Below, piece by piece: positions 5,046 to 20,817 of a stretch of 64,000 nt of DNA. Below the pieces are notes generated by a model, which saw only the letters and a list, made by a program, of their open reading frames with translations, was not told the origin of the DNA and searched no databases. The stretch lies in the NCBI GenBank assembly GCA_046262835.1, contig JBHELZ010000004.1:110336-174335 (forward strand). The letters are read 5' to 3'. The position numbers and the translations under genes were made by a program. Position 1 is the first letter of the stretch, and each line of letters starts with the position of its first letter. Source of the stretch: Pyrinomonadaceae bacterium (lineage in GTDB: Bacteria > Acidobacteriota > Blastocatellia > Pyrinomonadales > Pyrinomonadaceae).

Positions 5046-8000
5046 ATGTCGCATCGAACGCCAGCGAAAGCGTCCGTTCGCCGCTCGTCGTTTCTGTTAA
5101 TCGCACTATTTGTAGTGGCAGTTCTCAGCGTCAAGTCCATAAATCACACCGCGCACGCCCAAACAACGGGCGGCACACGACTGTTGCGAACGCCCACGGT
5201 CAGCGCGACGCAGATTGCTTTCGCTTACGCCCAAAATATTTGGACAGTTCCGCGCGTAGGTGGAATGGCCCGGCGCATCACCACCTTTCAGGGACAAACT
5301 TCAAACCCTCATTTTTCTCCGGATGGAAAATGGATTGCATTCAGCGGCGAGTATGCCGGCAACCTCGACGTCTATGTCGTAGCTGCTGATGGCGGAGAGC
5401 CGAAGCGGCTCACGTGGCATCCAGGCGGTGACGCGGTCCAGGGATGGACGCCTGACGGGCGGTCGATCATGTTTTCGTCAACCCGCGCGACCTGGTCCCC
5501 GAGCGGCGCGCCGCGTTTCTGGACGGTGCCCGCAGAAGGCGGCGTCGAAGAACCCATGCCCTTGCCGCGCGGCTTTCAGGGAAAGATTTCCGCTGACGGA
5601 TCGCACATCGCGTATCGCATGAACAGTTCATGGGATGACGAGCGACGGAACTATCGCGGCGGACAAAACCGGCCGATCTGGATTGTCGATCTAAAGAGCT
5701 ATGATCTCGTTTCGCCGCCGTGGACCGACTCAAAGGACATCGATCCCGTGTGGTCAAGCGACGCAGTTTTCTTCATTTCCGATCGTGACGGAGTAGAGAA
5801 CATTTGGAGCTATGACACGAGAACCAAAAAGCTCGCCCAGGTCACCAAGTTCACTGACTATGATGTAAAGACGATTGATTCCGGCGCCGGTGTCATCGTC
5901 TTTGAACAAGCTGGTTATATTCACGAATTAGATCCGAAGACCGGTCGTGAACATGTCGTCAACATTATCGCGACCGGGGACTTTCCCTGGATGATGCCGC
6001 GTTGGGAAGACGTTTCGAATCGCCTGACCAACATCGAACTATCACCGACAGGTAAGCGCATCGTCGTCGAGGCACGCGGAGAAATCTTTACAATCCCGGC
6101 GGAAAAGGGAGACGTGCGCAACCTCACGAACTCAAGTGCCTCAGCCGAACGCGATCCGGCATGGTCGCCGGACGGAAAATGGATTTCGTACTTCAGCGAT
6201 CGCTCCGGAGAATATCGCCTTTACATTGAAGCGCAAGATGGACTGACTCCACCACGAGAAATTGCGCTCGATCATCCGACCCATTACTACACGCCTTCCT
6301 GGTCGCCTGATTCGAAGAAGCTTCTTTTCACCGACACCGGCCTCCACGTGTGGGTGCTGGATGTGGCCAGCGGTAAAGCAAAAATTGTCGGCAACGATCC
6401 GTGGATGGTGCCGGCGCGCACCCTGAACCCCGTTTGGAGTCCTGATTCCAAATGGGTCGCTTATTCAAGCCGTCTGCGATCTTTGTATCACGCTATTTTT
6501 GTCAGCAACGCTGAGACCGGCGAAACCACCCAGGTTACAGACGGGCTGGCTGATGCCGTGTGGCCGGCATTCGACGCCAGCGGCAAATATCTGTGGTTCC
6601 TGGCTTCAACTGATTTTGGTTTGCGATCGCAGTGGCTCGACATGACTTCCTACGATCATGACGAGAACTTCGGTTTGTACCTCGCCGTCTTAAAGAAAGC
6701 CGACTCAAGTCCGTTGCTTCCTGAAAGCGATGAAGACCGTGGCGTGGGCACCGGCCGCCGGACTATACCCGGTCAATGCGTCGGGGACACAGCGCCGGGG
6801 GCGGGCCCGGGCGGCACTGATGCGGCCGCAGGCGATCAGCCCCAGGCGCCGCGTGGTCCCAGACAGCCAGTCAGCGTACAGATCGATTTCGATGGTTTGC
6901 GACAGCGAATTATTTCGGTACCGGGCATTGCTGAACGCCAGTATTCGTCATTGCGATCCGGCGCGGACGGAATCGTCTATTACCTGGAAGCAACGCGCGC
7001 GCAGGGCGCGGGTAGTGGCGGTGGCTTCCCGGGCGCGGCCAGCAATGAATTGATTCGTTACCGGCTTTGCGATCGGCGGGCTGCGAATTTCGTCAGCGGC
7101 GTGTCTGCTTTCGAAGTCAGCGCCGACGGACGCAAACTGGTCTACCGGGCCGCGGGTGGTGGCGGCGGTGGTGGTGGGGCAGGCTTTGGTGGACGCGCCC
7201 CGAATCCTTCGCTCTTTATTGTTGATGCCGATCGGACTCCGCCACAGCCGGGGAGTGGACGCATCAACTTCACTTTGCGCATGTATCTCGATCCCAAGGA
7301 AGAATTCAAACAAATCTTCAATGAAGGTTGGCGCAATCAACGGGACTATCTCTATGTTCCGAACCTGCAGGGCACAGACTGGAACAAAGACAAGGAAATG
7401 TACGGTGCAATGCTGCCGTACGTTATGCATCGTGCGGATCTGAATTATCTGATCGACATGATGGGCGCCGAGATCTCAATCGGCCATTCCTATGTTCGCG
7501 GGGGCGACATGCCCGACGTGCCGAATTCTCCGGGTGGTTTATTGGGTGCGGATTTCGCGATTGAAAACGGCCGCTACAAAGTCACGCGCATCTATGACAA
7601 CGAGAATTGGAACCCGGATCTGCGCTCACCGCTCGCCGTTCCGGGCGCGACCGTGAACATCGGCGATTACATTTTGGCTATCAACGGCGTAGAACTGAAG
7701 GCGCCGGATAACATCTATCGTTTGCTGGACGGCACCGCAAACCGGCAGACATCCCTCACGATCAACGACAAACCGACGATGGACGGCGCGCGCCACGTGG
7801 TTGTGGTTCCGGTGGCGACTGAACAAGCTCTGCGCACTCGCGCCTGGGTTGAATCGAATCGTCGCCTGGTTGAAAAACTTTCCGACGGCCAGCTTGCTTA
7901 CGTATATCTGCCGAATACGGGCCAACCGGGTTACACCAGCTTCAATCGTTATTACTTTTCGCAGCAGGACAAAAAAGGCGCCATCATCGACGAGCGTTAC

Positions 8001-12389: not shown

Positions 12390-13577
12390 CTATGCGTGAT
12401 GGTGGTGATGTTCGTGGTGATGATGATGCTCGGATCCATCCATCATGCGCAGCATCTCCGGCCCGCCAGTCTTAAAGAACCGCACCAGCAACAATCCGGC
12501 AATTGCCAGAAAAACAATATTGAGAACGGTCGTGTAATTAAGAGTGATCGATGCTTCCACTACCCGCGCCGCGCGATCGGTTGGGATCAGCCCCAGCCAG
12601 TCGAAAAGAAATTCAACGATAAGCGCCGCTGCCACCATCGCGGCATAGAAAGTAGCGAACAGGAAAATACTGACCTTCGCTCCATAGTACTTGCGATAGA
12701 TGTTTAGAATCGGCAGGACGATGAGATCGGCGAAGATAAAAGCGATCACTCCCCCGAAACTTATGCCGCCATTCCACAGCACCGCGGCCAGCGGAACGTT
12801 CCCTATTGAACACACGAACGAAAGAATTGCGACCAGCGGGCCAACCAGCGGCCCCCAGAACTTTGCGAAGACCGGGTGCGAAGTGAAAAAGAAGCTCTGC
12901 CAGAACGCATGTGGCACCGTTGCACCCAGGAGGCCCGCCAGTAACAATCCGATCGCGATGTCTTTCCATACCGCATGCCAGTCCATCACGAAATAATGAC
13001 TAATGGCGGTGCGGCCTTTACCTGAGGAAATTCTTTTTAATAGCGGGCCCCCGGTGACGGCCATATCCATCTCAGCGTGACCTTCCATTATTCCCTTCAC
13101 GCCCTTGTCAGCTTGCTCGCGAGCGGCTGCCACCAGTCGCGGCGTGAGAAAAATCTTAAAGAGCAGGGCCAGGATTATGATCATGAGCGGGCCGCCGATA
13201 AATTCAGCGAGCGCGAATTGCCAACCCATCAGCACAATCATGATGACGCCAAGTTCGATAACCAGATTTGTCGACGCGAATTGAAAGGCGATGGCCGCGG
13301 TGAAATTTGCGCCTTTGCGAAAAATCGACCGCGCGAGTGCGACGGCAGCATAAGAACAAGACGAGGATGCCGCCCCCAAAGCGCCGGCAATTGCGATCGA
13401 CTTCGGAGAATCGTCAGGAAGAAGCTTCGTCATCTCCCGTTTAGTCACGACTGCCTGCACGACTGCTGAGAGCCCGAAACCAAGAATCAAGGCCCATAGG
13501 ATCTCCCAGAACATGGCAAACGCCATCGACAGAGATTCCCAAATGGGATGTCCAATAGTCATCAAATTAGCCTGCAT
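12390..13577 (-). CDS. polytopic permease (ArsP/DUF318-like) with poly-His C-terminal tail
   Basis: 395 aa with multiple TM helices. The conserved-looking SSSCSYAAV segment recalls the predicted-permease PF03773 family (from memory). C-terminus GSEHHHHHEHHHHHA. RBS aggaag lies upstream of the ATG at 13577. Confidence 0.7.
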   Translation of the reverse strand: MQANLMTIGHPIWESLSMAFAMFWEILWALILGFGLSAVVQAVVTKREMTKLLPDDSPKSIAIAGALGAASSSCSYAAVALARSIFRKGANFTAAIAFQFASTNLVIELGVIMIVLMGWQFALAEFIGGPLMIIILALLFKIFLTPRLVAAAREQADKGVKGIMEGHAEMDMAVTGGPLLKRISSGKGRTAISHYFVMDWHAVWKDIAIGLLLAGLLGATVPHAFWQSFFFTSHPVFAKFWGPLVGPLVAILSFVCSIGNVPLAAVLWNGGISFGGVIAFIFADLIVLPILNIYRKYYGAKVSIFLFATFYAAMVAAALIVEFLFDWLGLIPTDRAARVVEASITLNYTTVLNIVFLAIAGLLLVRFFKTGGPEMLRMMDGSEHHHHHEHHHHHA

Positions 13578-13601: not shown

Positions 13602-14393
13602 TCATTGCACTACGATCGCGCCACGAAACATGTTCATCCCACAAGTGAACTTGAAGCGACCGGGTCTTTTGGGAGTAATTTCAACCAGGACCGGGGTGTT
13701 AAGAGGCAATGCACGAATTATCTTGTAAGCCGGAATAAGAATTTCAGTGCCACAGCTATCGGCGGTATTGCGGATAAAGGTGAGCCGCGCGGGCACCCCT
13801 TTTCGTAATTTGATCGCTGCGGGTCGATAACCTTCGGAATTCACCAGAATTGTTCGTTTCTGCATTTCAGGTGTTTTGACTGGTCGATCGCGGACTTGAG
13901 CTCCTGGCGCCGCATGTGAAAGCAGCGGTAGAACCTTTTCATCAAATTCATCTTTGTACATGACGCCTTCAATCACATCGCGCACCTTGCCTTGCCCGTC
14001 GATGATCACCGTTATGGGCAATGTTTCAGTTGAAGAAAACAGCAGCTTCGTCTCTTTAGTTCCCAGCGCAATTGGATAACTGATTCTCGCCCGCCGCGCG
14101 AACTGACGAACTCGAGAAAGTTTTTCCGGAGGATATGTGATGCCAACGAATTGTAATCCCCGACGACTATAGTCACGCTGCAACTTGATCAGTTCCGGCA
14201 GCTCCTGGCGACACGGCGGGCACCACGTCGCCCAGAAATTCAATAGCACGACTTTGCCCTTGAAATCGTTAAGATCAAAGATGCGACCATTAAGGGTCTT
14301 GAGGCGCAAGGCGGGTGCGGAACGCGAAGTCTGCGCTGAACCGGCGACCGAAGATAAAAAGACAATAGCGCTGATTGCGATTGTTCGAATCAT
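13602..14393 (-). CDS. periplasmic TlpA-like thiol:disulfide oxidoreductase fused to a cupredoxin-like domain
   Basis: Signal peptide MIRTIAISAIVFLSSVAGSAQ. Thioredoxin motif FWATWCPPCRQE. C-terminal ~90 aa ...ADSCGTEILIPAY...PGRFKFTCGMNMFRGAIVV match the cupredoxin_1 pattern (pG.y.f.Cgm..M.G.i.V). Confidence 0.75.
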   Translation of the reverse strand: MIRTIAISAIVFLSSVAGSAQTSRSAPALRLKTLNGRIFDLNDFKGKVVLLNFWATWCPPCRQELPELIKLQRDYSRRGLQFVGITYPPEKLSRVRQFARRARISYPIALGTKETKLLFSSTETLPITVIIDGQGKVRDVIEGVMYKDEFDEKVLPLLSHAAPGAQVRDRPVKTPEMQKRTILVNSEGYRPAAIKLRKGVPARLTFIRNTADSCGTEILIPAYKIIRALPLNTPVLVEITPKRPGRFKFTCGMNMFRGAIVVQ

Positions 14394-14395
14394 TC

Positions 14396-15853
14396 TTAGA
14401 ATAAGTACCTCGCCCCGAGGAGAAGGTTGCCATCCGTGCGCAAGATGAGCGGCCCCGTATTCCGCATTAATGGAAACTGATAGCTACCTTCGATCACGAA
14501 TCGGGGTCCGGCCGCATATTGCAGTCCCGGGGCCAAATAGTATTCGGTGGCCCGGCTTCCAGCGACTGGAAGCCCATTCAAGCGGCCCATACCTCGATGA
14601 ACGAACATCGTTTCAAGAATCAAAAACAGTTCGCCTCCAGGCTTGAGCCGGTCCTTTGGCAGCACATATTCCAAATCGGTGCTCAGCCGTTGTTCATGCC
14701 CGATCCGAAAGCCGTCTCGTTCGGTCCGAAAGATTACTTCGGCGTTTCCGCCAAAAATGACTCGGCCTCCGGCCTGGGAAAACGCGAGATCAAAATGGGG
14801 AGTCAAGCCCCCGTTTATCGGTGTCAGCTGTTGCCTTACGAAGGCAGGCGCATTGATTTGTGTTTGCGCGGGCGCCGTCTTTTTGCCGGTTGGCAGTTCC
14901 ATGCCTACTCGGAAGGCCGCCTGTCTGTCTCCGTAGGTCTTCACCTTTCTAAAGAATCGATACTTGGCCCAGCCGGTCAGATTTCCGATACCAGAGCCTG
15001 AACCCGAGCTGATCTTGTTGTCGTAAGCCGTGCGAGAGAACGGCAGTTCAACTTCCACCTGAAGACGTGGAGATGGAGTGTACGAAACGCTCAAATCGAA
15101 AGCCTGGCGATCGACTTCCAGAGATCCGAGATGCTGCTTGATAAGGTAGAGACGCGGAGTGACCGCCCCTCCCTTGTAAACGGTCAGTCCCGGAGAGGTC
15201 ACCCGGATTGGCGCCAGCGGTTTGCCTGGATCAGGATTGATTACGTCATCGGCAGGTGATGCAAGCGAAGAACGGGCAAAACTTACGTTGACGAAGTTCG
15301 GGAATGAGAGCCGGCGATAGCTTTCAGCACTTGATGCACTTGCCTTGCGCGCCGGCGAAATGGTTTCATGCGCGGCTGGTCCGGAGCCGATAGTCTTCCA
15401 ATCCCCGCTGATCTCGACGCTCACGCGTGGATTGGCTCCAGCCATAGCCTGGTCCATGTTAGCTCCTCCCAGCGCAAAGCGCTGTCCTGACGACTCGTTA
15501 ACCAGGATCCAGCCCGTGTCATCTTTCACAACAGTGCCGGAAACGGTGATGTCCGCCGCGTCGAGCGCATAACCCGCCTTCTTCAGCGTTTCTTTCAACG
15601 CCGCGAAGGATACGGGCTTATCAGGCTTGGGCGTGAAGATACCTAGCCCTTTTTGAATATCCGTTACCTGAATCTCTTTGAGTTTCGGTGCGTAGTCTAG
15701 ACGGCTCACGGCCTTCTGAATGTTGTACACTCAATTGCCGCACAAGTAGCCGGCGATATGCATCTGCACGCGCTTTACCTGCGCCTTTGAACTCGAAAGC
15801 ATTCCGAACAAGAGCACCAGCCCAAAGCCGATCCGAAAAAGTTTGCCTTGCAT
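14396..15853 (-). CDS. outer-membrane beta-barrel protein with N-terminal HMA domain carrying a C-x-x-U motif (candidate selenoprotein, UGA at 15731-15733)
   Basis: The ORF track starts at 15730, just after a TGA. Reading through the TGA in frame gives ATG 15853 and MQGKLFRIGFGLVLLFGMLSSSKAQ (signal) VKRVQMHIAGYLCGN-U-VYNIQKAVSRL..., which is the GMxCxxC HMA motif with UGA at the second Cys. 1458 nt is a multiple of 3. RBS gaaaggacag lies upstream. The C-terminus ends ...GARYLF, typical of OM barrels. Confidence 0.6.
15699..15717 (-). promoter_or_regulatory. candidate bacterial SECIS-like hairpin downstream of UGA 15731-15733
   Basis: mRNA AGAAGGC-CGUGA-GCCGUCU, hand-folded as 6 bp plus one A.G mismatch. 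The apical loop contains GU. It starts 13 nt after the UGA. Confidence 0.3.
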
Positions 15854-16085
15854 ATCGTTCTGTCCTTTCTAAATTGACGCGTCGAGAAAATCTTAATCCC
15901 TCGGTCTCGCGTTCATGTTCATTTGCCGTAGGCATGAAACCATATTCGTCGCGCCCATCGCGCCCATATCTATTCCGGGCATTTGCGCCATCGGAGTTGC
16001 AGGCCCTGCCGACGGCATCAGCAGAATTTTCTATAAATCTGCGCATGACTTCCCCTTGTTTGAATACCTCCAGGGGTGAGAGGTT

Positions 16086-16117
16086 GGGCGCGGCCTGGAG
16101 CAGCGCCGCGCCCTTTT
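16086..16117. terminator. GC-rich hairpin with T-run
   Basis: gggcgcggc-ctggagcagc-gccgcgccc gives a perfect 9-bp stem, followed by tttt on the plus strand. It lies 20 nt beyond the stop of the minus-strand Cys-rich gene, where it has an A-run before it and no U-run after it. Confidence 0.45.
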
Positions 16118-16137
16118 GCAGACGAAACACCAACTCG

Positions 16138-16407
16138 CTACTGCTTGTTCTTACCGTCTTTCTTTTCATGCTTCATCTGACATGAATCTCCGCAACAACA
16201 CGATCCGTCTTTGGAACATGAACCGTCTTTGCAGCAGTCCTTGTCTTTGCAGCAAGCCATGTCTTTGTCCTTGCAACAGTCCTTTGTCGCGCAGTATGAA
16301 TCCTTCTTGTCTTTGTCAGCTTGCGGATTCTGGGCCATTGCCGAGGCGGACGCGGCGAGCGCCATTCCGCAAATAAGGGTAATTACAAACGACTTAACTT
16401 CTTTCAT
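16138..16407 (-). CDS. secreted Cys-rich (metallothionein-like) small protein
   Basis: 89 aa. Signal peptide MKEVKSFVITLICGMALAASASAMA, then a 64-aa mature part with 12 Cys in CC/CCC clusters separated by KD repeats (CCKDKDMACCKDKDCCKDGSCSKDGSCCCGDSC). RBS aggaga lies 7 nt upstream. Confidence 0.6.
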   Translation of the reverse strand: MKEVKSFVITLICGMALAASASAMAQNPQADKDKKDSYCATKDCCKDKDMACCKDKDCCKDGSCSKDGSCCCGDSCQMKHEKKDGKNKQ

Positions 16408-16427
16408 TCTTATGTCTCCTAATCAAA

Positions 16428-16446
16428 GAATTGCTTAAAGCAATTC
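16428..16446. promoter_or_regulatory. 19-bp perfect palindrome just upstream of the Cys-rich gene
   Basis: GAATTGCTT-A-AAGCAATTC, 9-bp arms, lying 21-39 nt upstream of the ATG at 16407. It could be an operator or a weak terminator for the upstream gene. Confidence 0.35.
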
Positions 16447-16515
16447 GAGATGCGTGACTCAGCGACAGAAAACCATACTGCCGCCAACGTGCCGAACCGT
16501 TGAAGAGACACACTT

Positions 16516-17016
16516 CTAGATCAGAAAGACACAAACGCGGAGGTAGGTTCGATTTTGATTGGGCAAGCGTAGCGGATAAGCGGTTGAAACCGCCTCTGCC
16601 TGCGAGAGACTGGGTACTAACGAATCTGTTAGAGAGCAGGCGAAATTATCTTCGTCGTTGGATTGCGAGCGTGACGCGACGAGGTATGAGCCACCTGTCA
16701 GCGGGCAACAATTGCTCGCGCCCGAAGGCGCGGGCCCTTCCGGCAAAGCAACCTGCTCAAAATCTGGTCGCGATTCCGAATTCGATTGACTGAGCTTTGC
16801 TGAAGAATGATGCGCTTTGCAGCACGCATGACTTCCCATGGGGGCGGCTGCGCTGCTGAAACTGCTAATGAGGGCTTGCGGGCTTGCGAGGTCGGCATGA
16901 TTCATTGCACCGTGCGCATAGCTGACAATCATGCAGCCCGTGCCTGCGCACCAGAGCATCAGAGTGAACGCCAGCAACCTGCGAACTCTCTGGATAAATT
17001 GAACGCCGACTTTCAT
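16516..17016 (-). CDS. hypothetical membrane-anchored protein with CC/His motifs
   Basis: 166 aa. N-terminal TM LLAFTLMLWCAGTGCMIVSY. Motifs HACCKAHH and NCCPLTGG. No family recognised. Confidence 0.45.
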   Translation of the reverse strand: MKVGVQFIQRVRRLLAFTLMLWCAGTGCMIVSYAHGAMNHADLASPQALISSFSSAAAPMGSHACCKAHHSSAKLSQSNSESRPDFEQVALPEGPAPSGASNCCPLTGGSYLVASRSQSNDEDNFACSLTDSLVPSLSQAEAVSTAYPLRLPNQNRTYLRVCVFLI

Positions 17017-17183
17017 TGGTACGAATTTTAGGCCGGAGATAGCTTAATTGTCGAGTAGGTCAGGAAAACGAAGTGTCTTACTTTGCGGTTTTCTTAGCTT
17101 TCGGTCTTGCGCGCACCGTTGTAAATCAAGAGGGAAGGCACCCCGAAGCTGCGCAAAGACAAATAAGACAGTTGAAAAACGTT

Positions 17184-17924
17184 CTATGGGCTCGGCTTCT
17201 TCACGTGCGGGGGCTCGTACTGTTCGCCATATTCCGGGTACTCGATGGTCACAAATTCTCCCGGCCGAGTGTTCTGACTTAATAACCCGAGCGCATCCAG
17301 TAAAACTTTTTCTTGCAGGCCCCGCATGCCCGGACGCCCCAAACTGTTTCCAATTTTGAATCCCTTCGGATAAAGCGCGCGTGGCGGCCGCATCTGGGCG
17401 GAAACTTCGGGACTGACGGTGACCAGGACGGTCGGGATGCCTTTCATTTCGATTTCACGTTGAACCGCGACGACCGTGCGGTGGCAAACGTTGGGTCAAC
17501 CACCGGTGAGCACAACAGCATCTGCGCGCGAACCCCGATCGATCTCATTCGCGATCTCGCGCGCCGTGCCTTCATACATCGCCTTGAGTTGCATGGTGTA
17601 ACCCATGTAGCCGATATGCTTTTTAGCGATGCCGCCGATTATGCCGTCACTTTCCAGGGCCCGGAGAACATCGATCGGAAACACGACATTAATGTCTTCG
17701 TCCGCGTCCGCGTGATCGTAGTGATGATGCGTCACCATCAATTGAGCGGAATCAACGTCAGACGGGATTTCGCGATAAGTCAGATCGCCAAGCTCGTCGG
17801 CAATATTAAAGGGATCCTGATCTTTCAAGTGCACCCCACCCGCTGTGACAATCGCAATGGTGCTTTTAGAAAGCTCACGATCGAATGGAGTGAAAGGAAC
17901 ACATTTGCGTGAAAGTGTGGTCAT
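17184..17924 (-). CDS. glycine/sarcosine/betaine/D-proline reductase family selenoprotein B-like protein (PrdB-sized), UGA at 17496-17498
   Basis: ORFs 17496..17924 and 17184..17447 are in the same frame (741 nt = 247 codons) and are joined by one TGA: ...RADAVVLTGG-U-PNVCHRTVVAVQREIEMKGIPTVLVT.... This continuity across the stop is typical of the GrdB/PrdB selenoprotein family. Confidence 0.6.
17464..17482 (-). promoter_or_regulatory. candidate SECIS-like hairpin downstream of UGA 17496-17498
   Basis: mRNA ACCGC-ACGGUCGUC-GCGGU gives a 5-bp stem and a 9-nt loop containing GGUC. It starts 13 nt after the UGA. Hand-folded. Confidence 0.3.
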
Positions 17925-18487
17925 GAACTAACCGCCGTTTCATTCGGACAACATCCTTGATTCGTTGTTCCAGAACAGTAAGCTCTCGAGGGTAAGATGA
18001 ACCGTCGCGTCGCGCCGACCGTGTGAACGATTCTTTTTGATTTGCCGTTGAACCTGAACGAGGTCACCATGCCTACTTTGCTGCAATTGGGTCCCCGCCA
18101 CAGAATACCCACTTTCTTCGGTCTAATTACCGTTCATCGAGAGACAATCTATTAGCGCAATTGAAGAACGAGTTCGTTGAACTATTCAACGGCTAATCCT
18201 TTCCCTCACCCGCAAGATATCAAATTCAAAGCCAGTCTCATTTGAATCGCGACTCTGGCTTCAGCAGTGATTGTTATCAACAAACCAGACTCTTCTAATG
18301 CTATCCGGGTGTCCGAAGGTAATAACCCAGCATGAAATCGTTGAGGCCTATGAGCATTTGCTGCACCAACGCAATGGCCGGCACGAACCAGAGAATTAGT
18401 ATTCGAGCAGTCATATTGGTCGCGGGGCTGAACTGAGCCTTTAGCTCAGATTCCAGCCGCCCGATCAAACAACACACTCGATCAAGT

Positions 18488-18952
18488 TCACAGTTTCCTT
18501 AAGACTTCGAAAAGATCTTCATTGTCCGGCTGATCGGAAATGTTGTGGATGTCTTTGTAAGCGATTTTGCCGTCTTTACCGACAATGAAGATCGCCCGCT
18601 CAGAGATCCCATCGTTAGCTCGATAAGCTCCATAGGCTTTGGCTACTTCACCTTTGGGATGGAAGTCGCTGAGAAGATCGTAGGAAAGTCCACCGAGGCT
18701 TTTGGCCCAGGCGGTGTTACAGGGAACGCTGTCAACTGAAATGCCCAGAACCTGAGCATGATAGCCCGAGAAGCGGTCGATGTCGGCCTCGTACGCGGGC
18801 ATCTGCGCCGTTCAGACCGGTGTCCAGGCGAGGGGATAAAACGCGATGACCACATTCTTTTGACCGCGGAAATCCGAGAGCCGCACCTTCTTATCTTTCT
18901 CCAGGTGACTCTTCAACTCGAAATCCGGCGCCATATCTCCAACTTCAGGCAT
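18488..18952 (-). CDS. peroxiredoxin (AhpE/BCP-like) with selenocysteine at the peroxidatic position, UGA at 18812-18814
   Basis: The ORF track shows only the C-terminal 104 aa. Extending in frame through the TGA gives [61 protein letters not shown].... The UGA sits exactly where Prx proteins have the catalytic Cys (compare FYPLDFTFVCPTE in the neighbouring 2-Cys Prx). 465 nt is a multiple of 3. RBS ggagga lies upstream of the ATG at 18952. Confidence 0.75.
18779..18803 (-). promoter_or_regulatory. candidate SECIS-like hairpin downstream of UGA 18812-18814
   Basis: mRNA GAUGCC-CGCGUACGA-GGC(CGA)CAUC gives 7 bp with a 3-nt bulge and a loop containing GU. It starts 8 nt after the UGA. Hand-folded and weak. 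Confidence 0.25.
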
Positions 18953-19185
18953 GGTGAGTTCCTCCTATTAATGACAAATGAATTGTTTGGCTTTCCGCAC
19001 CAGATTAACGCGTTTGCAAAGGTCAATCAAGCGCTTCCCGGGCTTCATTACCAGACTGCGCGGTCGTAGTGCCCTTGTGATGTGGTAGGCGCATGTTGCC
19101 GGGGGTCTTTCCAGCCGGGACGCGGTGCGACTCTCAAGTTGCAGTTGCCGCGGCCCTTCGGGCTTGACACTCAATTTAGAATTAT

Positions 19186-19195
19186 TGTAATTACA
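19186..19195. promoter_or_regulatory. AT-rich palindrome, possible Fur/PerR-family operator
   Basis: TGTAATTACA is a perfect 10-bp palindrome within ttagaattattgtaattacattc, ending 3 nt before the PerR-like ATG and lying in the divergent region shared with the Sec-peroxiredoxin. Confidence 0.3.
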
Positions 19196-19198
19196 TTC

Positions 19199-19621
19199 AT
19201 GGCCCGGAACGTCAGAGAGCCGCCAGAGATCCCGTTGACGCGTCAACGCAGGGTTGTGCTTGAGGTGATAAACGCGGAGAAGGATCATCCTACCGCGGCC
19301 GAGGTGTTCGATTCCGCGCGCCGGAAGATGCCCGGAATCAGCTTTGCCACCGTTTATAACTCGCTCAGGTATCTGAAAGACTCAGGCCTGGTGCGCGAGA
19401 TTGCGTTCGGCAGCGGCGCCAGCCGCTACGACCGCGAAACCGACCGGCACGATCATGCGCTATGTTCCGAATGCGGAAAGCTGGTTGATTTCGATCTACC
19501 CGGCACGGTTGCCCTGACTCGTTCGGCCGCGCGGGCGTCTAAATTCAAAGCACAGTCGGTCCACTTAACGCTGGTGGGTCTTTGCCCGAAATGCCGCCAC
19601 AGTAAGCCGGGTTCGTCTTAA
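19199..19621 (+). CDS. Fur family transcriptional regulator (PerR-like)
   Basis: Start taken at the internal ATG 19199 (MARNVREPPEIPLTRQRRVVLEVI...). Winged-helix segment ATVYNSLRYLKDSGLV, HDHALCSECGKLVDF and CPKC (two CxxC pairs). Sits between two peroxiredoxin genes. Confidence 0.8.
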   Translation: MARNVREPPEIPLTRQRRVVLEVINAEKDHPTAAEVFDSARRKMPGISFATVYNSLRYLKDSGLVREIAFGSGASRYDRETDRHDHALCSECGKLVDFDLPGTVALTRSAARASKFKAQSVHLTLVGLCPKCRHSKPGSS

Positions 19622-19682
19622 TTTTTCGAAACGTCGTGATGCACAATGCGTCGCCGCAAACATAACACTTAGAGGAGGAAGA

Positions 19683-20252
19683 ATGTCAGCAGCAGTAGCA
19701 ACAGCTTATGAATCAGCCCAGGTCGGACAGCCCGCACCTGATTTTGAAGTTCCATCAACCAAGAATATTGAAAAACTGAATGAACCGGTAAAGCTTTCGG
19801 ATTATCGAGGCAGGTGGGTGGTTCTGCTTTTTTACCCATTGGACTTTACCTTCGTTTGTCCCACTGAACTTACCACCTTCAGCGATCGCTATGCCGATTT
19901 CGAAGGTGTCGGGGCCGAAGTCATTGGAGTCTCGACTGACTCAGCGTTTTCGCATCGCGCGTGGTTGCAAACGCCACGTGACAAAGGCGGCGTCGAAGGG
20001 CTGCGTTTTCCACTCGGCGCGGACATTACGAAAAAAATGTCGAAGGATTATGGTGTGCTGATCGAGGATCGCGGAATCGCACTGCGCGGCCTGTTCATTA
20101 TTGATCCGGAAGGCGTGCTGCGCTACAAAGTCATCCACGATCTGAACATTGGCCGGTCGGCGGAAGAAACGTTGCGCGTGATTCAGGCGTTACAGACCGG
20201 TGGTCTTTGCCAGGCTGAATGGCGGCCGGGCCAGGAAACCATCAAGGCGTAA
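19683..20252 (+). CDS. typical 2-Cys peroxiredoxin (AhpC/Prx1 subfamily)
   Basis: 189 aa with FYPLDFTFVCPTEL and a C-terminal resolving Cys (GGLCQAEW). Strong RBS aggagga. Confidence 0.9.
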   Translation: MSAAVATAYESAQVGQPAPDFEVPSTKNIEKLNEPVKLSDYRGRWVVLLFYPLDFTFVCPTELTTFSDRYADFEGVGAEVIGVSTDSAFSHRAWLQTPRDKGGVEGLRFPLGADITKKMSKDYGVLIEDRGIALRGLFIIDPEGVLRYKVIHDLNIGRSAEETLRVIQALQTGGLCQAEWRPGQETIKA

Positions 20253-20267
20253 ACGAACAGCTCAGAA

Positions 20268-20290
20268 GCCCGCGCGTAAGCGGGCCTTTT
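20268..20290 (+). terminator. rho-independent terminator candidate after the 2-Cys Prx gene
   Basis: gcccgc-gcgtaa-gcgggc followed by ctttt, 16 nt after the stop codon. Confidence 0.5.
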
Positions 20291-20308
20291 CGCAAGTTGG
20301 CCCTCCGT

Positions 20309-20323
20309 CGGGCTTCTGACACT
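20309..20323 (+). repeat. 15-mer CGGGCTTCTGACACT, copy 1
   Basis: Identical 15-mer also at 24470-24484. Its inverted partner tcagaagcccg lies at 20262-20272. It ends 18 nt upstream of the ATG at 20341. Confidence 0.6.
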
Positions 20324-20340
20324 TCCCGGGAGACCTAATT

Positions 20341-20817
20341 ATGCCGATGAGAATTGGGACCCTCATGCCTCCGCTGACAGGCGCAACTGAATGGCTCGCC
20401 GGCTCGGCGGAAGAGGCTTTGAAAGAAGCGGCCGGCCGGCCCCTGTTGATCCATTTCTGGTCTATCAGCTGCGGAATGTGCAAAGACAACTTGCCGCGCG
20501 TCGCTGAATGGCGAGAAAAATATCGGGACACAGGGTTCCGGGTAATCGCGATTCATATGCCGCGCTATCCCGGAGACGCGAACATCGACGCGGTGCGCGA
20601 AGCTGCCGCGAAATACGGAATCATTGAGCCGCTGGCAATCGACAACGAGCACAAGCTGCGCGACGCTTTTCAAAACGAGCACGGCTATGTCCCTGCTTAC
20701 TATTTATTCGACGAGCAGCACAAATTGAAAAGCTTTGCCGCCGGGGAATACGGGGTGAAGGTGATGGAGCCGGCGATTCAGCGCTTAATAAGCGGCGCGA
20801 GTGTGGCGCAAGTTTGA
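20341..20817 (+). CDS. thioredoxin-like (TlpA/redoxin family) protein
   Basis: 158 aa with LIHFWSISCGMCKDNLP (CxxC active site in a thioredoxin-fold context). Confidence 0.7.
   Translation: MPMRIGTLMPPLTGATEWLAGSAEEALKEAAGRPLLIHFWSISCGMCKDNLPRVAEWREKYRDTGFRVIAIHMPRYPGDANIDAVREAAAKYGIIEPLAIDNEHKLRDAFQNEHGYVPAYYLFDEQHKLKSFAAGEYGVKVMEPAIQRLISGASVAQV

Follow-up and report, generated by a model that had tools for sequence, protein, structure and literature searches.

Probable selenoprotein genes with in-frame UGA codons in a 4.6-kb stretch of a Pyrinomonadaceae genome, one of them for a predicted outer-membrane barrel protein

Conserved in-frame UGA codons in three neighbouring genes

The window analysed here, a 64,000-nucleotide stretch of genomic DNA from a Pyrinomonadaceae bacterium, contains three genes within 4.6 kb of its minus strand that are each crossed by an in-frame TGA codon. 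They encode an HMA-barrel protein, a PrdB-like protein and a peroxiredoxin, here called Prx(U). We believe, at a probability of about 85%, that all three are genuine selenoprotein genes whose UGA is read as selenocysteine (Sec, U) via SelB and Sec-tRNA(Sec). From the sequence data we infer both the dependence on SelB and Sec as the inserted residue. The G+C content of the window is 54.7%, and its relatives are Pyrinomonadaceae (Acidobacteriota, class Blastocatellia). The genes and the codons in question are as follows.

14396..15853, minus strand: HMA-barrel gene, 485 codons, a predicted secreted selenoprotein (translation, Pfam, PDB alignment, AlphaFold2 and Foldseek)
15731..15733, minus strand: UGA-1, predicted Sec codon at the second ligand of a CxxC-type metal site (orthologue conservation and Cys homologues)
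17184..17924, minus strand: PrdB-like gene, 246 codons, a predicted stand-alone PrdB-like selenoprotein with TGG-U-PNVC (translation, TIGR01918 and Pfam GRDB)
17496..17498, minus strand: UGA-2, predicted Sec codon of the UxxC motif (orthologue conservation and Cys homologues)
18488..18952, minus strand: Prx(U) gene, 154 codons, AhpC/TSA family with Sec as the predicted peroxidatic residue, WTPV-U (translation and Pfam)
18812..18814, minus strand: UGA-3, predicted Sec codon at the peroxidatic position (TGA in 59/61 tblastn matches)

The species representatives of GTDB were scanned with the post-UGA part of the HMA-barrel gene. The scan gave 79 loci, and the Sec codon was covered in 78. The codon was TGA in all of these 78 orthologous loci. 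The metagenome scan with the PrdB-like protein as query gave 80 loci, which made 82 together with the window and its relative L037; the Sec codon was TGA in 78 and TGT (Cys) in 4. For Prx(U), the counts come from 61 tblastn matches in the PrdB-like locus set. The two matches without TGA carried TGC and lay in peroxiredoxins that are 34-35% identical. These counts, with the synonymous constraint described below, uphold the proposal made earlier from the sequence alone that the three genes are UGA-recoded selenoprotein genes with a nearby downstream signal.

Coding sequence was present on both sides of the TGAs at 15733-15731, 17498-17496 and 18814-18812, as the sequence-only reading had claimed. 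The HMA-barrel gene translates as MQGK…HIAGYLCGN-U-VYNIQKAVSRLDY…. The protein is conserved in frame on both flanks of UGA-1, and in the 15 codons 5' of it the protein is kept and the synonymous sites vary. The PrdB-like gene translates as …ADAVVLTGG-U-PNVCHRTVVAVQ…, with TGG-U-PNVC at the Sec position of the PrdB/GrdB family. It had also been claimed that the TGAs fall on redox or metal-ligand positions. This was borne out by the PDB alignment for the HMA CxxC motif, by the PrdB/GrdB Sec position and by the peroxidatic position of AhpC/TSA. Cys counterparts were found for each. Homologues P0247, P0296 and P0387 of the HMA-barrel protein have Cys at the UGA-1 position (CSMC or CNSC), and many full-length Cys homologues of the PrdB-like protein (TGGCPxVCHRT) are 66-85% identical to the protein of the window. 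For Prx(U), Cys is peroxidatic across the family and in the two TGC matches. A conserved UGA and Cys homologues, the marks of a selenoprotein gene, were found for all three genes, and on either side of each UGA the amino acids are conserved and synonymous sites change freely.

The genetic code was standard, since 21 of the 46 Pfam-supported genes in the window end with TGA as a normal stop. Genome-wide reassignment of UGA was ruled out on this ground. A scan of the window found no additional read-through TGA with protein-like flanks.

The TGAs could also be true stops that arose from pseudogenes, sequencing errors or split genes, with the downstream open reading frames (ORFs) starting at a GTG or ATG chosen by the gene caller. 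Public gene calls do treat them so, and a GTG follows UGA-1 directly. However, the same TGA recurs across dozens of species and independent assemblies, the sequence on either side of it is under purifying selection, and RNA-level constraint lies right after each stop. As separate fragments, the barrel would be without its signal peptide, the HMA fold would be half missing, Prx would lack its active site and PrdB its C-terminal half. The data indicate that this explanation is hardly credible and close to refuted.

Standard ORF calling had been predicted to misannotate the region, and it does. The best 120 database matches to the HMA-barrel gene all start right after the UGA, and one NCBI entry among them is called "transporter". 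PrdB-like database fragments of 141-142 amino acids terminate at the UGA, and two database proteins carry Trp instead: P0377 at the HMA Sec position (YLCGNWVF) and P0121 at the PrdB-like Sec position (TGGWPSVC). Some pipelines evidently translated the contigs of P0121 and P0377 with a code in which UGA is Trp. The 4.6-kb stretch is misannotated in essentially every public copy, and the barrel protein is deposited leaderless as "transporter" or "hypothetical protein".

Recoding elements downstream of the UGA codons

In the proposed mechanism, the in-frame UGA would be decoded as selenocysteine during translation by the bacterial SelB/Sec-tRNA(Sec) pathway. SelB would be tethered by a small stem-loop of the mRNA within the ORF, the bacterial selenocysteine insertion sequence (SECIS), whose apical loop lies about 20-28 nucleotides (nt) past the UGA. 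The candidate elements are listed below; MFE denotes the minimum free energy fold.

15699..15717, minus strand: SECIS-1 hairpin AGAAGGC-CGUGA-GCCGUCU at nt 17-35 past the U of UGA, its loop carrying G25-U26 (MFE and alifold)
17464..17482, minus strand: SECIS-2 hairpin ACCG-N-AC-GGUC-GU-N-GCGGU at nt 17-35, its apex formed by GGUC at nt 24-27 (MFE)
18764..18800, minus strand: candidate SECIS-3, an interrupted stem-loop with a CYGA tetraloop, nt 15-51 after the UGA (mean pair probabilities over 46 orthologues)

Codons +5 to +10 of the HMA-barrel gene (CAG AAG GCC GTG AGC CGT) had a synonymous entropy of 0-0.2 bits over 77 sequences, and neighbouring conserved codons had 1-2 bits. These codons coincide with the hairpin at 15717-15699. 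In both the HMA-barrel and the PrdB-like gene, codons +5 to +10 were the six-codon window of lowest normalised synonymous entropy (permutation p<=1.5e-4 and <=5e-5, respectively). The upper stem GGC/GCC and the loop G25-U26 of SECIS-1 were invariant in 58/58 distinct sequences. In the PrdB-like gene, the ACG, GTC and GCG codons were invariant in 71/71 sequences, and third positions in SECIS-2 varied at nt 21 and 30 only, the two unpaired nucleotides of the hairpin. The loop G25-U26 stands at an equal distance from the UGA in hairpins 1 and 2. The loop GGUC was present in 78/78 Sec-form PrdB-like genes and in 0/4 Cys forms, which have GAUC instead. The apical GGUC of hairpin 2 matches the E. 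coli fdhF loop. In both offset and loop (GGUC or G-U), the hairpins agree with the bacterial SECIS consensus (E. coli fdhF, bSECISearch rules). A SECIS of this kind is a conserved stem-loop with an apical G, usually G-U, about 16-37 nt from the UGA. Such a stem-loop was found in the HMA-barrel and PrdB-like genes and in part in the Prx(U) gene.

The hairpins drawn by hand in the sequence-only reading fared unequally. Those at 15717-15699 and 17482-17464 are the MFE folds. The third, at 18803-18779, appeared only in a 44-nt context and not in the 60-nt MFE; it needs a CAUC that is found only in the window, the orthologues having CCUC, and was replaced by the structure at 18800-18764. This SECIS-3 had mean base-pair probabilities of 0.6-0.8 over the 46 orthologues. 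On the alignment, 93% of its cells were paired against 21-48% with the partner slid, a comparison that is partly circular because the structure was drawn from the same sequences. The covariation of pair 18-48 is not circular and is strong (CG 24, UA 12, UG 4, AU 1 and GC 1). The 60-nt MFE of the window itself retains the lower stem. The synonymous constraint in Prx(U) was weaker, with p about 0.025. We believe that SECIS-3 is a probable element rather than an established one.

The four Cys-form PrdB-like genes (TGT) are those of loci L132, L125, L131 and L157. The stem at the SECIS position is kept in three of them, with a stronger fold of -15.3 kcal/mol in L131 and L132. It looks like a fossil SECIS that lost its SelB contact after the conversion of Sec to Cys.

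Several results weigh against the selenocysteine reading and its elements. In computed folding, no hairpin beat dinucleotide shuffles (z -0.67 to +1.09), so the thermodynamic stability expected of the hairpins did not hold up. Hairpins 1 and 2 are invariant and therefore show zero covariation. RNAalifold and the averaged ensemble favoured other weak folds in the PrdB-like and Prx regions, and SECIS-3 has a CYGA tetraloop without G-U and, in the window, an apical stem with a G.A mismatch. The Pfam HMA profile (PF00403) scored 21.1 bits on the HMA-barrel protein, under its gathering cutoff of 24.8. No selA, selB, selD or tRNA-Sec gene was found in the window (64 kb) or in the related loci, which make up about 1.7 Mb. 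The functional roles proposed below draw on domains and gene neighbourhood only.

Shuffle z-scores are uninformative for hairpins this short, and it is orthologue conservation, not thermodynamic stability, that separates the hairpins from chance. Conservation with covariation, which the earlier proposal had made a test, was obtained in part: hairpins 1 and 2 are near-invariant with no covariation, and SECIS-3 has one covarying pair. The ensemble helices 2-27 and 29-44 in the PrdB-like region were rejected, as their pairs are broken in many sequences and the invariance block at nt 16-35 fits hairpin 2 instead. Rfam found no SECIS or other credible family, either at gathering thresholds over the whole window or at E<=10 over 14300-19100.

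The synonymous constraint after the UGAs might belong to some other overlapping signal, such as an internal ribosome-binding site or start context, an antisense element or codon bias, the hairpins being incidental. The pairing of the invariant hairpins 1 and 2 is unproven by covariation, their fold energies equal those of shuffles, and a stem persists at this place in three of the four Cys forms of the PrdB-like gene. However, the constraint lies at an identical offset (+5 to +10) in two unrelated genes, variable third positions fall only on nucleotides predicted to be unpaired, none of the Cys forms keeps the loop G, and the offset and loop fit the SECIS consensus. We consider such a signal very unlikely.

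In another explanation, the UGAs are recoded to Cys, Ser or Trp by a suppressor tRNA. This could be a tRNA-Cys of the SelC* type, delivered by a factor like SelB, or an allo-tRNA of Acidobacteria whose anticodon is UCA. Opal suppressors of the tRNA-Sec-like tRNA-Cys kind have been reported in other phyla, and the allo-tRNAs of Acidobacteria may be nonsense suppressors (PMC5389517). No sel genes were seen here, and sequence alone cannot separate Sec from Cys. Yet SelC* has not been reported in Acidobacteria (PMC5389517), and each of the three sites is one where known families classically carry Sec. The UGA is held in 78 species although a one-base change to UGY gives Cys, as in the four PrdB-like relatives and in HMA homologues of the P0247 type; this argues that the residue differs from Cys. 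Suppression was therefore judged improbable. With regard to the machinery, no tRNA genes were found in the window, and ARAGORN found no tRNA-Sec in the window or related loci. Searches by tblastn with approximate E. coli SelD and SelA queries gave no match in related loci. Acidobacteria include Sec users (PMC1794560), and no report of Sec in Pyrinomonadaceae was found in the literature searched.

The HMA-barrel protein

From the N- to the C-terminus, the HMA-barrel protein consists of a signal peptide, an HMA-like domain (CGN-U), a small beta domain, a disordered linker and a 12-strand outer-membrane barrel of the COG4313/FapF type. In the sequence search of PDB, iaGYLCGN[U]VyniqkAV was aligned with iaGMTCasCVhsIeg of the metal-binding domains of ATP7B and CopA (E 2.7e-5 and 2e-3). 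GYLCGN-U is aligned with GMxCxxC, and therefore the predicted Sec codon lies on the second Cys ligand. For the Pfam and NCBIfam searches in this study, Cys was put in place of U. Pfam PF13557 scored 24.4 bits against a cutoff of 22.

AlphaFold2 with a shallow alignment gave an unusable model (mean confidence score, pLDDT, 38.5). A more diverse alignment raised the pLDDT to 83.5 for the 444 residues after the UGA; the first 41 residues lie outside the model. In post-UGA numbering, the modelled parts are as follows.

Residues 1-57: remainder of the alpha/beta domain
Residues 60-126: small beta domain
Residues 134-173: disordered linker
Residues 187-443: barrel

Foldseek matched the barrel to FapF (5o65) and Pput2725 (4rl8, a COG4313 channel) with probability 1.00, E about 1e-10 and target-normalised TM of 0.75-0.77. 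The COG4313/PF13557 channels are defined by a 12-strand barrel and by a profile score that exceeds the cutoff, and both were found. Without read-through, the barrel protein loses its signal peptide. The fold match of the barrel and the N-terminal signal peptide therefore describe the product, as modelled, as a predicted outer-membrane channel with a tethered periplasmic HMA(CxxU) domain.

Like FapF, the protein would have a periplasmic N-terminal domain on a flexible linker, and it shares the 12-strand barrel with both FapF and Pput2725. The N-terminal module differs, being HMA(CxxU) and a small beta domain rather than a coiled coil. Selenoproteins with an HMA fold have already been listed, namely MerP, a cation-transporting ATPase (UxxC) and the metal-binding protein NF041115 (UxxU) (PMC2398784, PMC13188914). 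As predicted for the protein of the window, Sec stands in them for one of the Cys ligands in the GMxCxxC metal site. The motif here, however, is CxxU, with Sec as the second ligand, and its domain is joined to a barrel of the outer membrane. The family has 269 representatives at E<=1e-3. It was found only in Pyrinomonadaceae-like Acidobacteria, with Sec in every orthologue sampled. There is no NCBIfam model for it, and the table of a 2026 review has no PF00403, PF13557 or HMA entry for such a fusion (PMC13188914).

The HMA(CxxU)-barrel protein thus seems to be an uncatalogued selenoprotein family with at least 78 Pyrinomonadaceae species representatives. A fuller claim is that it founds an undescribed family of channels with a Cys-Sec ligand for soft metal, Cu(I) or Hg(II), that is obligately Sec across Pyrinomonadaceae and has its own TlpA-like reductase. 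We hold this only tentatively, at somewhat below even odds. From domains and neighbours we suggest that the protein handles soft metal, probably copper. In the periplasm, the HMA(CxxU) domain would offer a site for soft metal, most likely Cu(I), and be joined by the flexible linker to the 12-strand outer-membrane channel, and the co-transcribed TlpA-like reductase would keep the Cys-Sec pair reduced. If so, Sec would occupy an envelope metal site in aerobic soil bacteria and act there as a structural ligand of the metal.

The PrdB-like protein and the peroxiredoxin

The PrdB-like protein scored 70.4 bits with TIGR01918, the selenoprotein B subfamily, against a cutoff of 65.45, and the UxxC motif of the subfamily is present. 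With TIGR04483, the PrdB equivalog, it scored 177.4 bits against a cutoff of 300. No PrdA, PrdC or GrdA partner and no Gly_reductase domain was found among the ORFs of the window. The protein is probably not a Stickland reductase, because a PrdA or GrdA partner is missing from the window. The earlier label "selenoprotein B" therefore stands at the level of the subfamily; the protein is a stand-alone PrdB-like one, below the PrdB equivalog. Compared with PrdB/GrdB (TIGR01918, PF07355; Clostridium sticklandii PrdB), it shares a length of about 245 amino acids, UxxC and the homologous Sec position. Unlike them, it has no PrdA, PrdC or GrdA nearby; its gene stands with that of a Sec-peroxiredoxin, next to a PerR-like/AhpC operon. 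PrdB-type selenoproteins are abundant in aerobic marine metagenomes (PMC2398784).

Prx(U) matched Pfam AhpC-TSA with E 2.5e-36 and 124.8 bits against a cutoff of 26. With NF040737, the PrxU equivalog, it scored 70.5 bits against a cutoff of 270. It shares the AhpC/TSA fold and T-x-x-U at the peroxidatic position with the known Sec-peroxiredoxins (Prx TxxU; PrxU of Eubacterium acidaminophilum), but is a short 154-amino-acid form like BCP/PrxQ and not the PrxU equivalog. Prx (TxxU) and PrdB (UxxC) are among the commonest catalogued prokaryotic selenoprotein families (PMC2398784, PMC13188914).

We believe that the PrdB-like/Prx(U) pair may act in peroxide defence rather than in Stickland chemistry. 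Prx(U) would reduce peroxide by means of its selenol. The stand-alone PrdB-like UxxC protein would be either a redox partner of Prx(U) or another reductase, and the two would form a unit for peroxide stress next to the PerR-like regulator and AhpC. The conserved Prx(U)/PrdB-like(U) pair gives a testable lead on stand-alone PrdB homologues beyond Stickland fermenters.

A second, different Sec-peroxiredoxin paralogue was seen in locus L054, from another Pyrinomonadaceae metagenome-assembled genome, at about 6240-6780 on the minus strand with TGA at 6601 (…AFYVLAFTGG-U-TKELKAYQ…). It sits 3.4 kb from an HMA(U)-barrel gene. Pyrinomonadaceae genomes probably carry more selenoprotein genes than these three.

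Recoding of UGA to Sec by a hairpin within the ORF is textbook knowledge, as in E. coli fdhF and Moorella fdhA. The genes of the window share with these the in-frame UGA, the in-ORF hairpin, the apical G-U about 20 nt on and the Cys orthologues. By comparison, the hairpins of the window are tiny, with only 3+3 or 4+2 base pairs. The Prx element has greater length and a CYGA loop, and no machinery genes were observed in the window or related loci. The Prx and PrdB families are known, and the HMA-barrel protein is probably a new family of a known kind. If the selenocysteine reading is true, the routine use of Sec extends to Pyrinomonadaceae. Abundant aerobic soil Acidobacteria would then be consistent Sec users, which bears on the selenium demand in soils.

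Gene neighbourhood

The neighbouring genes named above are as follows.

13602..14393, minus strand: TlpA-like thiol:disulfide oxidoreductase (WCPPC) with a fused cupredoxin-like domain, separated by 3 nt from the HMA-barrel gene upstream (Pfam, NCBIfam)
12390..13577, minus strand: ArsP_1/SO_0444-like permease with a His-rich tail, suggestive of metal efflux (PF03773, 3.6e-67; NF033936, 52.7 bits, below cutoff)
19082..20817, plus strand: PerR-like Fur regulator, 2-Cys AhpC and Trx-like genes, divergent from the Prx(U)/PrdB-like pair (Pfam, NCBIfam)

The TlpA-like gene lies immediately 3' of the HMA-barrel gene in 52 of the 68 loci with room for it. Prx(U) is just upstream of the PrdB-like gene in metagenome loci, with a median gap of 129 nt in 55 related loci and a few gaps of 1.2-1.9 kb. 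PerR-like, AhpC and Trx-like genes are near the PrdB-like gene in 9-56 metagenome loci. The three UGA-containing genes were together only in the window and its relative L037. The HMA gene was absent from all 80 PrdB-like loci, and in 29 of these the sequence continues for 3 kb or more downstream. The cluster thus brings two conserved modules, Prx(U) with PrdB-like(U) and HMA(U)-barrel with TlpA-like, side by side in one lineage. The selenium-dependent "island" first suggested for this region dissolves into two independent modules, adjacent only in these two genomes.

The TlpA-like and cupredoxin-like fusion was seen in the window and in locus L001; in L021, a canonical small HMA protein comes after the TlpA-like gene. 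In Bradyrhizobium, TlpA reduces the periplasmic copper proteins ScoI and CoxB. The likeness consists of a gene for a TlpA-like CxxC reductase next to that for a periplasmic Cys-based metal site, and the differences are that the reductase of the window is fused to a cupredoxin-like domain and that its putative target, by analogy, would be a Cys-Sec pair.

The ArsP_1/SO_0444-like permease is not conserved beside the HMA gene in other loci. Its C-terminus reads HHHHHEHHHHHA, and there is no in-frame TGA in the copy of the window. The SO_0444 family has been listed with selenoprotein members (PMC13188914).

The Prx(U)/PrdB-like spacer of the window (17925-18487) is 563 nt long and holds short ORFs only; it may be what is left of an insertion, or contain a regulatory RNA. 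Two small genes lie between the PrdB-like and HMA-barrel genes. The one at 16138-16407 (minus strand) encodes a secreted Cys-rich protein of 89 amino acids with repeated CCKDKD/CCKDG, which neither Pfam nor NCBIfam matched; six PrdB-like loci have weak homologues of it, and it may be a periplasmic metal-binding peptide. The other, at 16516-17016 (minus strand), encodes a protein of 166 amino acids with an N-terminal hydrophobic segment, the paired-Cys motifs HACCKAHH and SNCCPLTGG and no family match. This protein may belong to the PrdB-like module because it adjoins the PrdB-like gene in 20 metagenome loci.

The true start of the Fur ORF (19082-19621) is probably further downstream, because the FUR domain starts at residue 52. 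An imperfect palindrome, ACAATTCATTTGT, lies at 18974-18986 (minus strand), 5' of the Prx start at 18952 and between Prx(U) and the PerR-like Fur gene, and is a possible Fur-family operator.

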